DNA of 64,000 nt, taken from contig DASSPX010000031.1 in the NCBI GenBank assembly GCA_035699445.1, positions 10,570 to 74,569 on the forward strand, given 5' to 3'. Below, piece by piece: positions 40,207-49,949 of this stretch. The notes beneath the pieces were generated by a model. That model saw only the letters and a list, made by a program, of their open reading frames with translations, ran no database searches and was not told where the DNA came from. Numbering within the stretch: the stretch's first letter is position 1; every line of letters starts with the position of its first letter. A program made the translations under genes and the position numbers. This DNA is from Candidatus Limnocylindrales bacterium. Lineage in GTDB: Bacteria > Chloroflexota > Limnocylindria > Limnocylindrales > CSP1-4.

Positions 40207-40586
40207 TGCATCGTTCGATCGCGCGGCGCGTCCTGCTCGCGGGCTCGCTCGCGTCCGCCCTGTCGGCGGCCGCGGTGGCCCCGGCGCTCGCGCACGATCA
40301 CTACGCGGGGCCCGCGCACGGCGGCACCGGCCAGGTGCTCGCGAACGGCGGCAACCATCCGAAGTTCCTGCCCAGCGCCGGCGGCACGTACACCTCGTGC
40401 GAGTCGAACGGGCCGGTCCCGGGCGACACGATCAGCAATGCGTGGTATGGCCTCGAGACCGCCCACCACGGACCGGACTCGGGCGATCCGGGCAAGCGCG
40501 ACGTCGTGAACGGCGTTGTCGACCGCTGCTACACGGCGGACGGCAATCCCGCCACCAGCGACGACCAGAACCCGGCGATCCGGTAG
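40206..40586 (+). CDS. small secreted His/Gly-rich hypothetical protein (126 aa)
   Basis: Signal peptide 'MHRSIARRVLLAGSLASALSAAAVAPALA'. Mature part begins 'HDHYAGPAHGG' and contains 2 Cys. Confidence 0.6.
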   Translation: MHRSIARRVLLAGSLASALSAAAVAPALAHDHYAGPAHGGTGQVLANGGNHPKFLPSAGGTYTSCESNGPVPGDTISNAWYGLETAHHGPDSGDPGKRDVVNGVVDRCYTADGNPATSDDQNPAIR

Positions 40587-40620
40587 GCGTCGGCCCGCGC
40601 GACGACAGGGCGCTCGGCGA

Positions 40621-41484
40621 TCAGCCGGGCGCCCGCCCCGGCAGCTCCTCGCCCGGCATCGGCTTCCGGGCGCGCACGAACACGCTCGTCGCGATCCGGC
40701 CCTGCCGCTCGGCCGGCACCCGGGCGCGGAGGAGGTCGAGCAGCGCCGGGCCGAACAGCGGATAGAGCTCGCACTCGGCGATCCCGAACGGCTCGATCGG
40801 GTCGATGCCGACGGCGCGGAACCCGGCCCGCCGCAGGCCCTTGTAGAGCGCGATCTCCGAGAGCGCTCCCGACAGGCAGCCGGCCCACGCGGCGGGGTGC
40901 GTCTGGATCTCGGCCGGCAGGTCGTGCTCGAGCACGAGGTCGACGATCGCGAGCCGGCCACCCGGCCGCAGGACGCGGTACGCCTCGCTCAGCACCCGTG
41001 CCTTCCGCGGCGAGAGGTTCACGACGCCGTTGCTGATGACCACGTCCGCCGCTTCATCGGGCAGCGGCAGCGCCTCGATCTCGCCGCGGACGAAGCGGAC
41101 GTTGTGGATGCCCGCCGCCGCGGCCGCCGCCGACGCGCGCGTGACCATCTCGGGCAGGAAGTCCACGCCGATGACCGAGCCGCCGGGCGCCACGGCCCGC
41201 GCGGCGATCAGGCAGTCGATCCCGCCGCCCGAGCCCAGGTCCACCACGTCCTCACCCGGCCGCAGGTCCGCGAACGAGACCGGGTTGCCCACGCCGAGGG
41301 CGATGCGGACCGTCTCGTCGGGCAGGCCCTCGAGCTGCTCGGGCCGGTAGTAGCGGCGCGCCACCCGGCCATCCGTCGGCCGGACGCCGCCGTACGTCTC
41401 GCGGACGGCGGCGCGGATCCGGTCCTGGCCGAGCAGGTCGGCACCCTCGAAGTGGAACGTGTCGGGACCGATGTGGCTCGTCAT
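40621..41484 (-). CDS. SAM-dependent methyltransferase, ArsM/UbiE-like
   Basis: SAM motif I 'VVDLGSGGGID', also 'ADVVISNGVVNL' and 'LRPGGRLAIVD'. ATGA overlap with the anti-sigma gene. Confidence 0.8.
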   Translation of the reverse strand: MTSHIGPDTFHFEGADLLGQDRIRAAVRETYGGVRPTDGRVARRYYRPEQLEGLPDETVRIALGVGNPVSFADLRPGEDVVDLGSGGGIDCLIAARAVAPGGSVIGVDFLPEMVTRASAAAAAAGIHNVRFVRGEIEALPLPDEAADVVISNGVVNLSPRKARVLSEAYRVLRPGGRLAIVDLVLEHDLPAEIQTHPAAWAGCLSGALSEIALYKGLRRAGFRAVGIDPIEPFGIAECELYPLFGPALLDLLRARVPAERQGRIATSVFVRARKPMPGEELPGRAPG

Positions 41485-41732
41485 CGGCCGGCCTCCGGCT
41501 CGGGCTCCGCGGCGGTGAGCAGGAGCTCGATGCGCTGCCGGACCTCCGGGGGCATCGCGGGCGTGGCCGCCCGGTCGACAACCAGCTCCCGCAAGCGCCG
41601 GCTGAACTCGAGCTCGCCGCAGCAGCGCGTGCAGGTGTCGAGGTGCTGCTCGAGCTCGTCGTTGTGCGGGCCATCGAGGGCCGCCTCGAGGTACAGCCAC
41701 ATCCGCCGAACGGCCTCGCGACAGTCGATCAT
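41481..41732 (-). CDS. zinc-binding (ZAS) anti-sigma factor, RsrA/RshA-like
   Basis: 83 aa with 'HLDTCTRCC' (Hx3Cx2C) plus an N-terminal Cys ('MIDCREAV'). ATGA overlaps on both sides. Confidence 0.8.
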   Translation of the reverse strand: MIDCREAVRRMWLYLEAALDGPHNDELEQHLDTCTRCCGELEFSRRLRELVVDRAATPAMPPEVRQRIELLLTAAEPEPEAGR

Positions 41733-42361
41733 CGGGCGTCCTCTTCGTCGATCGCGCTCACGAGCCCGTTCGCGACGGCGTACTTCCACAGCCCGCGCTC
41801 GAGCTTCTTGCGGCCACGGTGCAGGCGCGAGAGCAACGTGCCCAGCGGGACGTCGAGGATCACCGCGGCCTCCTTGCACGAGAAGCCGTGGATGACCGTG
41901 AGGATGAGCGGCTCGCGAAAGGCCGCGGGGATCGACCCGAAGATCGCCTGGACGTCCTCGTCGCCGAACAGGCGCAGGAAGTCCATGTGGAGCTCGTCCG
42001 AGTACGGGAAGGGATCCTCGATGGCGATCGTCTGGTAGAGCGAGAAGTCGTCGTCGTCGGCCTCGAGCGCGTCGAGCGGCGTCGTGGCGACCTCGCGGCC
42101 GCGGGCGCGGCAGAGGTCCCGCCAGAGGTTGGTCGCGATCGAAAACAGCCAGGGCTTCGCCCGGTCGCGGTCGCGGACCTCCGGCCATGCGCGCATGCCG
42201 CGCAGGAGCGTCTCCTGGAGCAGGTCCTCGGCGTCGGCCGAATTGCCGGCGAGCCGAACGCAGAACCCGTAGAGGCGATCGCCGTGCTCCCGGACGACCG
42301 CGGCGAAGGACCCCGGCGTGGCATCGGACGGCGGCGGGGGCGCGAGCTCCGCATCGAGCAC
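41729..42361 (-). CDS. ECF sigma factor, SigR/SigH-like
   Basis: Region 2 'DAEDLLQETLLRGMRAW..WLFSIATNLWRD' and region 4 'SCKEAAVILDVPLGTLLSRLHRGRKKL'. The GTG start at 42361 was chosen because an ECF-type promoter lies inside the longer ORF (to 42544). Confidence 0.85.
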   Translation of the reverse strand: MLDAELAPPPPSDATPGSFAAVVREHGDRLYGFCVRLAGNSADAEDLLQETLLRGMRAWPEVRDRDRAKPWLFSIATNLWRDLCRARGREVATTPLDALEADDDDFSLYQTIAIEDPFPYSDELHMDFLRLFGDEDVQAIFGSIPAAFREPLILTVIHGFSCKEAAVILDVPLGTLLSRLHRGRKKLERGLWKYAVANGLVSAIDEEDAR

Positions 42362-42415
42362 ATCGACCTCTGGCGTGGGTTCCCGCCGGCCTGGCGGAGT
42401 GGCGGATTGAGGCTT

Positions 42416-42445
42416 GAAGACGATGGCCGGCACTGAATTATTCCC
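42416..42445 (-). promoter_or_regulatory. ECF-type promoter GGGAATAA-N15-CGTCTTC driving the sigma/anti-sigma/methyltransferase operon
   Basis: Minus-strand read: GGGAATAA (42445-42438), 15 nt, CGTCTTC (42422-42416). This equals GGAAT-N18-GTC, close to the SigR/SigH consensus GGAAT-N18-GTT. Confidence 0.6.
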
Positions 42446-42457
42446 GTCCGGGCCCCC

Positions 42458-42487
42458 GGGAATAACATCGTTCGGCCCGGCGTCTTC
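42458..42487 (+). promoter_or_regulatory. ECF-type promoter GGGAATAA-N15-CGTCTTC driving osmC
   Basis: GGGAATAA (42458-42465), 15 nt, CGTCTTC (42481-42487). Boxes and spacing are identical to the minus-strand copy. The -35 boxes form a 9-bp inverted repeat TTATTCCCG/CGGGAATAA. Confidence 0.6.
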
Positions 42488-42537
42488 GCCCATCGACCCG
42501 CCCTCGGCGGGACGGTCAACCGATGGGAGGTTCGCAC

Positions 42538-43101
42538 ATGGCAACAGTGACGATGCGGAACGGGGTGGACGTCGACCGGCTGGTCGCGACGATCGGCGCG
42601 ATCCAGGGGGACGGCTCGATCGGACAGTTCACGTTCCGGGCGCGGAGCACCTGGGAGAGCGGCGGTCGCAGCCGGGGCGAGATCCGCGAGTTCGTCCACG
42701 CCGGCCAGACGGTGGAGCGACCGCAGGCATTCGAGCTCACGGGGGACGAGCCGCCCGTGCTGCTCGGGACGAACGCCGGACCGAACGCGGTCGAGCTCGT
42801 GCTCCAGGCGCTCGCGTTCTGCTACGCGGTGGGCTACGTGTACAACGCCGCAGCGCGCGGGATCGAGATCGAGGAGCTCCGGTACGAGGTGGAGGGCGAC
42901 CTCGATCTCCACCGGTTCGTCGGGCTGGGCGGGCCGCGTGCCGGCTTCTCCGAGATCCGGGCGACCAGCTGGGTGCGCTCCCCGAACGCGTCCCAGGCGC
43001 AGCTCGAGGAGCTGTGCACGTACGTCCAGGAGACGTCGCCGGTTCGCGACATCCTCGCCAACCCGGTGCCGGTCACGACGAACCTCGTCGTCCTCGACTG
43101 A
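42538..43101 (+). CDS. OsmC-family peroxiredoxin-like protein
   Basis: OsmC fold signature region 'GPNAVELVLQALAFCYAVGY'. ATG at 42538 with GGAGG 7 nt upstream. Confidence 0.8.
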   Translation: MATVTMRNGVDVDRLVATIGAIQGDGSIGQFTFRARSTWESGGRSRGEIREFVHAGQTVERPQAFELTGDEPPVLLGTNAGPNAVELVLQALAFCYAVGYVYNAAARGIEIEELRYEVEGDLDLHRFVGLGGPRAGFSEIRATSWVRSPNASQAQLEELCTYVQETSPVRDILANPVPVTTNLVVLD

Positions 43102-43146
43102 GCCCGGGGTCCCGGCGGTTCGCCGGCCACCCGGCCGGGCATACGA

Positions 43147-43174
43147 AAGGCCCCCGGATCACTCCGGGGGCCTT
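43147..43174. terminator. bidirectional hairpin between convergent osmC and csp
   Basis: AAGGCCCCCGGA-tcac-TCCGGGGGCCTT (12-bp perfect stem). A-run 5' and T-containing 3' flank. Confidence 0.7.
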
Positions 43175-43196
43175 CGGCTGCGATCAGCCAGGGCGG

Positions 43197-43409
43197 TCAG
43201 ACCGCGGTGACTTCTCGAACGTTGCTGGCGCGCGGGCCCTTGGGGCTGTTCTCGATGTCGAACTCGACGGTCTCGCCGCCGAACAGGCGATCGAAGTCGA
43301 TCGTCCCGCGAACCTCGCTGCGGTGGAAGAAGAAGTCCTTGCCGTCCTCGGCGGTGATGAAGCCGAAGCCCCGATCCGCGACGACCTTCTTCACTCGGCC
43401 GGTGGTCAT
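43197..43409 (-). CDS. cold-shock domain protein (CspA family)
   Basis: 70 aa with RNP-1 'RGFGFI' and RNP-2-like 'DFFFH'. ATG at 43409 within ORF 43197..43685. Confidence 0.9.
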   Translation of the reverse strand: MTTGRVKKVVADRGFGFITAEDGKDFFFHRSEVRGTIDFDRLFGGETVEFDIENSPKGPRASNVREVTAV

Positions 43410-49394: not shown

Positions 49395-49949
49395 ATGCAG
49401 GACGAGCTGGTCCGCCAGGCACGGCAGGGCGACGCGGAAGCGTTCGATGCCCTGGCGCGCATGGTGGGCGACCGATGCCTCGCGATCGCGGTACGGATCC
49501 TCCGCGACCTCGATTTGGCGGAGGACGCGGTCCAGGCCGCGCTGATCACCGCCTGGATCGAGCTTCGTGCCCTGCGCGACCCGTCGCGCTTCGAGCCGTG
49601 GCTCCACCGCATCCTCACCAACGCGTGCTACGCCGAGGCCAGGCGTCGCCGGCGATGGTCCGACGGACTGCGGATCCTGCCCGTCGCGGGCACGCGGAGC
49701 CCGGACGAGTACCTGACCGTGGACGATCGCGATGCGCTCGAACGGGCCTTCCGGAGGCTCACAGCGGAGCAGCGAGCCGTCCTCGTGTTCCACCACTACC
49801 TGGGGCTCTCCATCCCCGAGGTGGCGGAACGAACCGGACTTCCCGTCGGGACCGTCAAGTCCCGACTGCATCACGCGACGCGGTCGTTGCGGGCCAGCCT
49901 CGACGCTGACTCGCGGTCGACCGCGGGCTCCCAGGAGCGAACGGCATGA
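49395..49949 (+). CDS. ECF sigma factor
   Basis: Region 2 'AEDAVQAALITAWIELRALRDPSRFEPWLHRILTNAC' and region 4 'SIPEVAERTGLPVGTVKSRLHHATRSL'. GGAGGGA lies upstream of the ATG at 49395. Confidence 0.85.
   Translation: MQDELVRQARQGDAEAFDALARMVGDRCLAIAVRILRDLDLAEDAVQAALITAWIELRALRDPSRFEPWLHRILTNACYAEARRRRRWSDGLRILPVAGTRSPDEYLTVDDRDALERAFRRLTAEQRAVLVFHHYLGLSIPEVAERTGLPVGTVKSRLHHATRSLRASLDADSRSTAGSQERTA

Follow-up and report, generated by a model that had tools for sequence, protein, structure and literature searches.

How an ECF sigma factor operon and a divergently oriented gene for an OsmC-like protein are both controlled from the 176-nt gap between them, and where translation of the sigma factor begins, are the questions raised by a locus in the window, that is, the whole stretch of 64,000 nt that was analysed. 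The host is a metagenome-assembled genome (MAG) of the class Limnocylindria (Chloroflexota), with an assembly of 2.84 Mb in 179 contigs, ~80% completeness and 72.8% G+C. On the minus strand the locus encodes an ECF sigma factor of 210 aa (41729..42361, counted from GTG 42361; Pfam Sigma70_r2 and r4_2), a soluble ZAS anti-sigma factor of 83 aa (41481..41732; PF13490, 34.1 bits against a cut-off of 22.2) and an ArsM/UbiE-like SAM methyltransferase of 287 aa (40621..41484; PRK11873, 242.6 against a cut-off of 263), the consecutive genes being joined by ATGA start/stop overlaps. The plus strand carries the gene for the OsmC-like protein, a putative thiol peroxidase (42538..43101; PF02566, 65.4 bits), with GGGAGG just 5' of its ATG 42538. 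The gap contains two promoter sites, and the reading favoured here, with a probability of roughly 0.8, is that these back-to-back promoters are read by the adjacent sigma factor and form an autoregulated ECF sigma/ZAS anti-sigma switch in which the sigma factor starts at GTG 42361.

The promoter of osmC is made up of a -35 element with the sequence GGGAATAA (42458..42465, plus strand; conserved core GGAATA, 42459-42464) and a -10 element (42481..42487; CGTC, 42481-42484), and the promoter of the sigma operon of the same GGGAATAA on the minus strand (42438..42445, read 42445-42438) and its own -10 element (42416..42422; CGTC, 42422-42419), the TTC tail being unconserved in both -10 elements. 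Direct reading places GGGAATAA-N15-CGTCTTC at 42458-42487 (+) and 42445-42416 (-), so that every coordinate given by an earlier, sequence-only reading, which had described twin divergent sites with identical boxes and spacing, matches the sequence. The same reading had pointed to a 9-bp inverted repeat around GGGCCC; this repeat is indeed present and perfect in the window, with the arms TTATTCCCG (42438-42446) and CGGGAATAA (42457-42465) around TCCGGGCCCC, but the GGGCCC-centred palindrome and the TTC tails are peculiar to the window genome and are not conserved in orthologs. As expected of an ECF promoter (GGAAC/T-type -35 and CGT-type -10 boxes, ~16-17 nt apart), GGAATA-N16-CGTC occurs twice, with 57 nt between the -10 box and GTG 42361 on one side and 53 nt between the -10 box and the osmC ATG on the other. 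A promoter scan of 40500-43300 gave no sigma-70-like promoter in the gap between sigma and osmC, and a weak terminator-like site that a scan of the same region placed inside the sigma gene was judged to be due to chance.

The two sites are rare. With up to two mismatches allowed, GGGAATAA-N15-CGTCTTC matches twice in the window, against 0.02 matches expected from shuffles, and GGAATAA occurs three times in the genome. A scan of all 2.84 Mb for GGGAATAA-N15-CGTCTTC, which had been proposed as a way to define the regulon, returns the two sites of the window and no others. Likewise, a weight matrix derived from 90 sites of the orthologs, the window's own two excluded, finds these two sites alone, at 27.3 and 27.1 bits, with everything else in the genome at 14 bits or less. 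The looser GGAAT-N18-GTY is not significant by itself in the window (two found, 1.46 expected), and genome-wide the matches to GGAAT-N18-GTC (20) and GGAAT-N18-GTT (8) look random save for the window's two sites; the specificity of the motif lies in GGAATA plus CGTC rather than in the loose form. One further candidate for the regulon, GGGAAT-N17-CGTC at 30916 of contig C16, was rejected, as it lacks the invariant A after GGAAT and falls below the matrix threshold. The regulon of the window genome appears to consist of these two promoters alone, within the limits of an assembly from which other members could be missing because it is only ~80% complete.

A search for orthologs, with one genome taken per species, yielded 48 loci with a close relative of the sigma factor (61-79% identity, except for one at 49%), nearly all of them from MAGs labelled Limnocylindria/Limnocylindrales or Chloroflexota. 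The osmC gene is divergent from the sigma gene in 47/48 of these loci, and the genes for the anti-sigma factor and the methyltransferase lie downstream of sigma in 46/48. Both divergent copies of GGAAT-N17/18-CGTC are found in 46/49 loci (the 48 orthologous loci and the window), which bears out the expectation that the motif should recur upstream of orthologous sigma genes and places it before the divergent osmC as well. GGAATA is invariant in 90/90 orthologous sites, though the search demanded GGAAT alone, and the divergent-pair sites all read CGTC even with CGTT permitted, so that the conserved motif can be written as (G)GGAATA(A/T)-N15/16-CGTC. The spacer from GGAATA to CGTC is N16 or N17 in all 92 sites (46 loci, both sides); counted from GGAAT, a spacer of 17 nt is found in 37 loci on the osmC side and in 40 on the sigma side, and one of 18 nt in 9 and 6 loci, respectively. 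The information content reaches 2.9 bits at each A and T of GGAATA and at the T of CGTC, and is ~0 in the flanks and the spacer.

Several single observations were made among these loci. The sole distant homolog (L067, 49% identity), which is labelled an Actinomycetota MAG and has no osmC neighbour, shows GCAATA-N16-CGTCTAA upstream of sigma (L067:2359-2388), a one-base variant of the -35 box. Near-identical loci in MAGs labelled Zixiibacteriota, Verrucomicrobiia, Actinomycetota and Acidimicrobiales (L025, L034, L036, L053) are probably mis-binned or mislabelled Limnocylindria contigs. An extended -35 signature, GGAATAACTTC, is located on the osmC side in most loci and on the sigma side in one clade (comparison of the intergenic regions of L042, L045, L048, L050, L051, L055, L061 and L063); on the tree one change accounts for this swap of sides, as though the promoter cassette had been flipped a single time (L042 is not in the tree).

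By the distance that separates their -35 boxes, the loci form two classes. Measured over positions 42446-42457 of the window and the equivalent spacers of the other loci (L022-L069 and L105-L218), the 5' ends of the GGAAT boxes stand 12-15 nt apart in 25 loci and 23-26 nt apart in 21. Metagenome contigs were also scanned for the twin motif, without protein information and with any inner gap of 6-34 nt permitted, which added 16 further orthologous loci, some of which may duplicate MAG loci, with gaps of 13-14 nt in eight and 23-25 nt in eight; gaps of 16-22 nt are absent from all 62 loci (46 + 16). On a tree built from three proteins in concatenation (sigma, methyltransferase and OsmC), at least five switches of gap class are needed. 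These distances suggest that the classes differ by steps of one helical turn. A universal helical-phase rule was rejected, however, on the evidence of proteobacterial-looking contigs from the same scan, which show gaps of 10, 11, 12, 14, 15, 18, 21, 22 and 26 nt; since these spread over 10-26 nt, a general mechanistic phasing rule is unlikely, and a real phasing constraint is possible but unproven.

Copies of the motif also occur outside the divergent pair. In at least 19 loci a third, unpaired and non-palindromic copy (GGAATA-N16/17-CGTC) directly follows the first methyltransferase gene (MT1) and precedes, by 20-50 nt, a second ArsM-like paralog of ~260 aa with ~46% identity to MT1, as at L043:4294-4319 and in L023, L024, L026, L027, L031, L032, L034, L039, L040, L046, L048, L049, L050, L052, L055, L057, L063 and L068. 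A search of the window genome for an ortholog of the second methyltransferase found none, the best matches being MT1 and, on contig C139, a paralog with 49% identity. One clade has a further copy that belongs to a PLP-dependent decarboxylase-like gene (DPHKW motif; L061:4521-4546); in L052 this gene is inserted between osmC and sigma, and the inserted gene and sigma each have a copy (L052:812-837 and 2406-2432). The copies at the decarboxylase-like gene suggest that the regulon gains genes by promoter duplication. In ten further relatives the pattern matched 29 times, 21 of them at the locus, against no match of the control; most of the eight off-locus matches lie inside long open frames, and the only ones kept were a pair that precedes, by ~32 nt, orthologous genes for a response regulator of the NarL/LuxR type (L095:1501-1526 and L096:1501-1526, genomes G085 and G087), which may have been added to the regulon in a subclade.

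What reads these boxes could be a protein other than the adjacent sigma factor. Palindromic operators often control divergent gene pairs, and the perfect 9-bp repeat formed by the boxes of the window would suit a dimeric transcription factor that binds TTATTCCCG...CGGGAATAA and controls both genes, with CGTC being incidental. This is the least probable of the alternatives weighed here, as the half-site distance varies between 12-15 and 23-26 nt among orthologs, with no conservation of GGGCCC, and the locus has no conserved transcription factor gene. Furthermore, the unpaired copies before the second methyltransferase, the fixed position of CGTC, which lies outward of each GGAATA at 16-17 nt, and the variable distance between the boxes argue for single directional promoter units rather than a dimer operator. 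Given promoters, the motifs could still be read by a different ECF sigma factor, encoded at 49395-49949 or on other contigs, and autoregulation of the adjacent sigma would then not apply. The genome does encode other ECF sigma factors, with weak tblastn matches at 30-31% identity on contigs C132 and C48, boxes of the GGAAT/CGTC type are common to several ECF groups, and sigE of Starkeya novella itself lacks the consensus read by SigE (PMC6527743). The distribution of the motif makes such an exchange improbable. Within the family of the host the module is patchy, the sigma factor being encoded in 6/61 genomes; the motif is present at the locus in 6/6 of these, against 2/55 of the sigma-less genomes with one stray match each and a single match of a reversed-pattern control, so that the motif co-occurs with its sigma across the 61 family genomes. 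In 47 loci, moreover, the motif invariably stands just in front of this sigma gene. From position and co-occurrence we infer that the motif is read by the adjacent sigma factor, and the compact bidirectional, autoregulated region that had been predicted from the window gains support from a twin divergent motif that is present in 46/49 loci and confined to sigma-bearing genomes.

The promoter positions bear on the start of the sigma factor, for which the longest ORF reaches 42544 and would give 271 aa, with 61 additional N-terminal codons. GTG 42361 is in frame and has GAGG just upstream, and no other in-frame start lies between promoter and conserved core. The window belongs to the 23/46 orthologs in which the frame is open across the promoter, and in these genomes a longer isoform from an upstream promoter is conceivable because the frame stays open; a further promoter upstream of 42544 could then give a 271-aa sigma factor, or two isoforms, for which SigR and SigR' of Streptomyces coelicolor are a precedent. 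Such a product is nevertheless very improbable. In the other 23/46 orthologs the extension is untranslatable, as the frame is closed by an in-frame stop downstream of the -10 box (10/46) or within the promoter (13 more), the latter often being the TAA of GGAATAA itself, and all of these closed-frame orthologs have start candidates ~45-65 nt past the -10 box. The extension would also overlap the promoter pair and the start of osmC on the opposite strand, alignments give no similarity upstream of the shared core, and the beginning of region 2 would move to residue 84, from residue ~23 as counted from GTG 42361; spurious long open frames are, moreover, routine in high-G+C genomes. Close relatives in the protein collection are annotated at 204-235 aa, and three with 85-87% identity at exactly 210 aa. 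The claim that the first 61 codons of the longest ORF are not translated is upheld by the closed frames together with relatives of 210-220 aa, and translation of the sigma factor probably starts at GTG 42361 rather than at the TTG or ATG that the longest ORF offers farther upstream.

If the adjacent sigma factor reads both promoters, the switch would work as follows. In the resting state the small soluble, zinc-bound anti-sigma factor would hold the sigma factor, until a thiol-reactive or oxidising signal attacks the Cys/His zinc site of the anti-sigma and sets the sigma free. The freed sigma would then fire both promoters, each with GGAATA as -35 and CGTC as -10 box 16 nt apart (17 nt in some relatives), and in many relatives also the third, before the second methyltransferase. 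The leftward promoter would drive sigma, the ZAS anti-sigma and the ArsM-like methyltransferase in this order, which amounts to positive autoregulation, with ~50 nt from the predicted start of the transcript to GTG 42361; the rightward promoter would drive the gene for the OsmC-like peroxidase. The anti-sigma factor has the hallmarks of a ZAS protein (zf-HC2, with H-x3-C-x2-C and an upstream Cys ligand), and its residues C4, H30, C34, C37 and C38, which include the C-x25-H-x3-C-x2-C set, are invariant in 47/47 sequences. In the OsmC-like protein C95 is kept in 44/44 sequences and C160 in 43/44. A thiol-reactive or oxidative signal is the working model because of the Cys/His spacing of the anti-sigma, the precedent of the ZAS partners of SigH and SigE and the cysteines of the OsmC-like protein. 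Not all ZAS proteins with H-x3-C-x2-C are redox-sensitive, so that the nature of the signal is uncertain.

The methyltransferase bears on the possible output of the switch. At the positions of the arsenic-binding cysteines of ArsM the protein (40621-41484) reads ALGVGNP and SNGVVNL, and it is probably not a true arsenite methyltransferase. Its best NCBIfam matches include ArsM-like/AhpD domain fusions and selenoprotein variants, and the best match of the OsmC-like protein is named 'OsmC-related (seleno)protein'.

Taken together, the data support a well-defined, autoregulated ECF sigma/ZAS module with divergent promoters, predicted from sequence and of a kind already known, and the current understanding of ECF regulation is not overturned. 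For an ECF sigma/anti-sigma pair of the Limnocylindria, the outcome is a minimal regulon and a clean promoter motif with good computational support, along with a corrected start codon for the sigma gene. The Limnocylindria are an abundant yet uncultured class of Chloroflexota in soil and freshwater, and to our knowledge no promoter has been mapped in them. A sigma/promoter pair with few targets resembles the sets used as orthogonal switches in synthetic biology, and a ZAS-controlled sigma factor tied to ArsM-like methyltransferases hints at uncharacterised detoxification chemistry. A bolder reading, which we consider doubtful, would see in the locus, beyond a general oxidative-stress switch, a dedicated sensor and detoxification unit of the Limnocylindria for one thiol-reactive class, with the promoters held in fixed helical register. 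If true, the unit would have a fixed output of an OsmC-type peroxidase and one or two ArsM-like methyltransferases, plus the PLP-dependent decarboxylase-like gene in one clade, and the helical register would mean that two ECF holoenzymes on adjacent promoters interact structurally or obey an exclusion rule.

Among the known ECF groups, ECF271 of the classification of Casas-Pastor (2021) is represented by a model protein from a Chloroflexi MAG with a soluble ZAS partner (PMC8999054). The module can be likened to it by the group description, as it shares the phylum and the soluble ZAS-type anti-sigma partner (PMC8999054); a literature search gave no mention of ECF271 beyond this review, and the main text of Casas-Pastor (2021) mentions neither Chloroflexi nor OsmC. 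The promoters resemble those of the ECF26-type sigma factors, such as RpoE4/RpoE1 of Sinorhizobium meliloti and SigE of Starkeya novella, which take part in the sulfite response and for which a -35 GGAAT and a -10 CGTC were mapped by 5'RACE and confirmed by reporter fusions, with spacers that vary by 1 bp (PMC6527743). The sites of the window agree with this GGAAT/CGTC consensus and fit it better than GGAAT/GTT. The partner genes differ, being sulfite-oxidising enzymes for the ECF26 type, and an OsmC-like protein and a methyltransferase here. A second family with the same layout was encountered in the metagenome scan, which also gave many proteobacterial-looking contigs (~58-66% G+C) with a twin divergent GGAATA-N16-CGTC, on which an ECF sigma factor of ~185 aa is encoded divergently from a secreted DsrE/DsrF-like protein (L100, L102, L110, L112, L115, L119, L124, L127, L136, L189, L194, L200, L201). 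The sigma factors on those contigs have ~30% identity (39-59 bits) to that of the window, and twin divergent GGAATA/CGTC sites, as predicted promoters, are a recurrent ECF architecture.

In its organisation the module is reminiscent of SigR-RsrA of Streptomyces coelicolor and SigH-RshA of Mycobacterium tuberculosis (ECF12), with which it shares a sigma gene followed by a small soluble anti-sigma, a GGAAT -35 box, an implied autoregulation and an antioxidant-type target gene. The best NCBIfam match of the anti-sigma is RsrA and that of the sigma factor the actinobacterial SigH, and the solved proteins closest to the sigma factor are SigE and SigH of M. tuberculosis (~85 bits each; SigH 84.5); a sequence search for a solved homolog of the anti-sigma gave none. 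The spacing of the zinc ligands of RsrA (C11, H37, C41 and C44) equals that of C-x25-H-x3-C-x2-C in the anti-sigma of the window. Both SigE and SigH of M. tuberculosis are partnered by redox-sensitive ZAS anti-sigma factors, which let the sigma go upon oxidation of the zinc site (PMC8999054). The kinship to SigR and SigH that the sequence-only reading had drawn from the promoters stands as far as both copies read GGAAT-N18-GTC, but does not extend to membership, which fails on model scores, -10 sequence and taxonomy. The sigma factor scores 93.1 bits against TIGR02947, under the cut-off of 251.55, and the anti-sigma 51.7 bits against TIGR03988 (RsrA), under the cut-off of 62.5, with 72/77 model positions aligned. 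The two sites of the window share -35 box and spacing with the SigR promoter form GGAAT-N18-GTT, but both have GTC in the -10 box, whereas the boxes of SigR are GGAAT and GTTG (PMC5005934). The host belongs to the Chloroflexota and those of SigR and SigH to the Actinomycetota, for which reason mycothiol is not expected here. Unlike the sigma factors SigR and SigH, moreover, that of the window has regions 2 and 4 joined by an additional linker, IEDPFPYSDELHLDFLRLF, that is conserved, and its regulon would comprise 2-3 promoters instead of dozens. By these marks the predicted module is SigR/SigH-like in its logic and not a member of that family.
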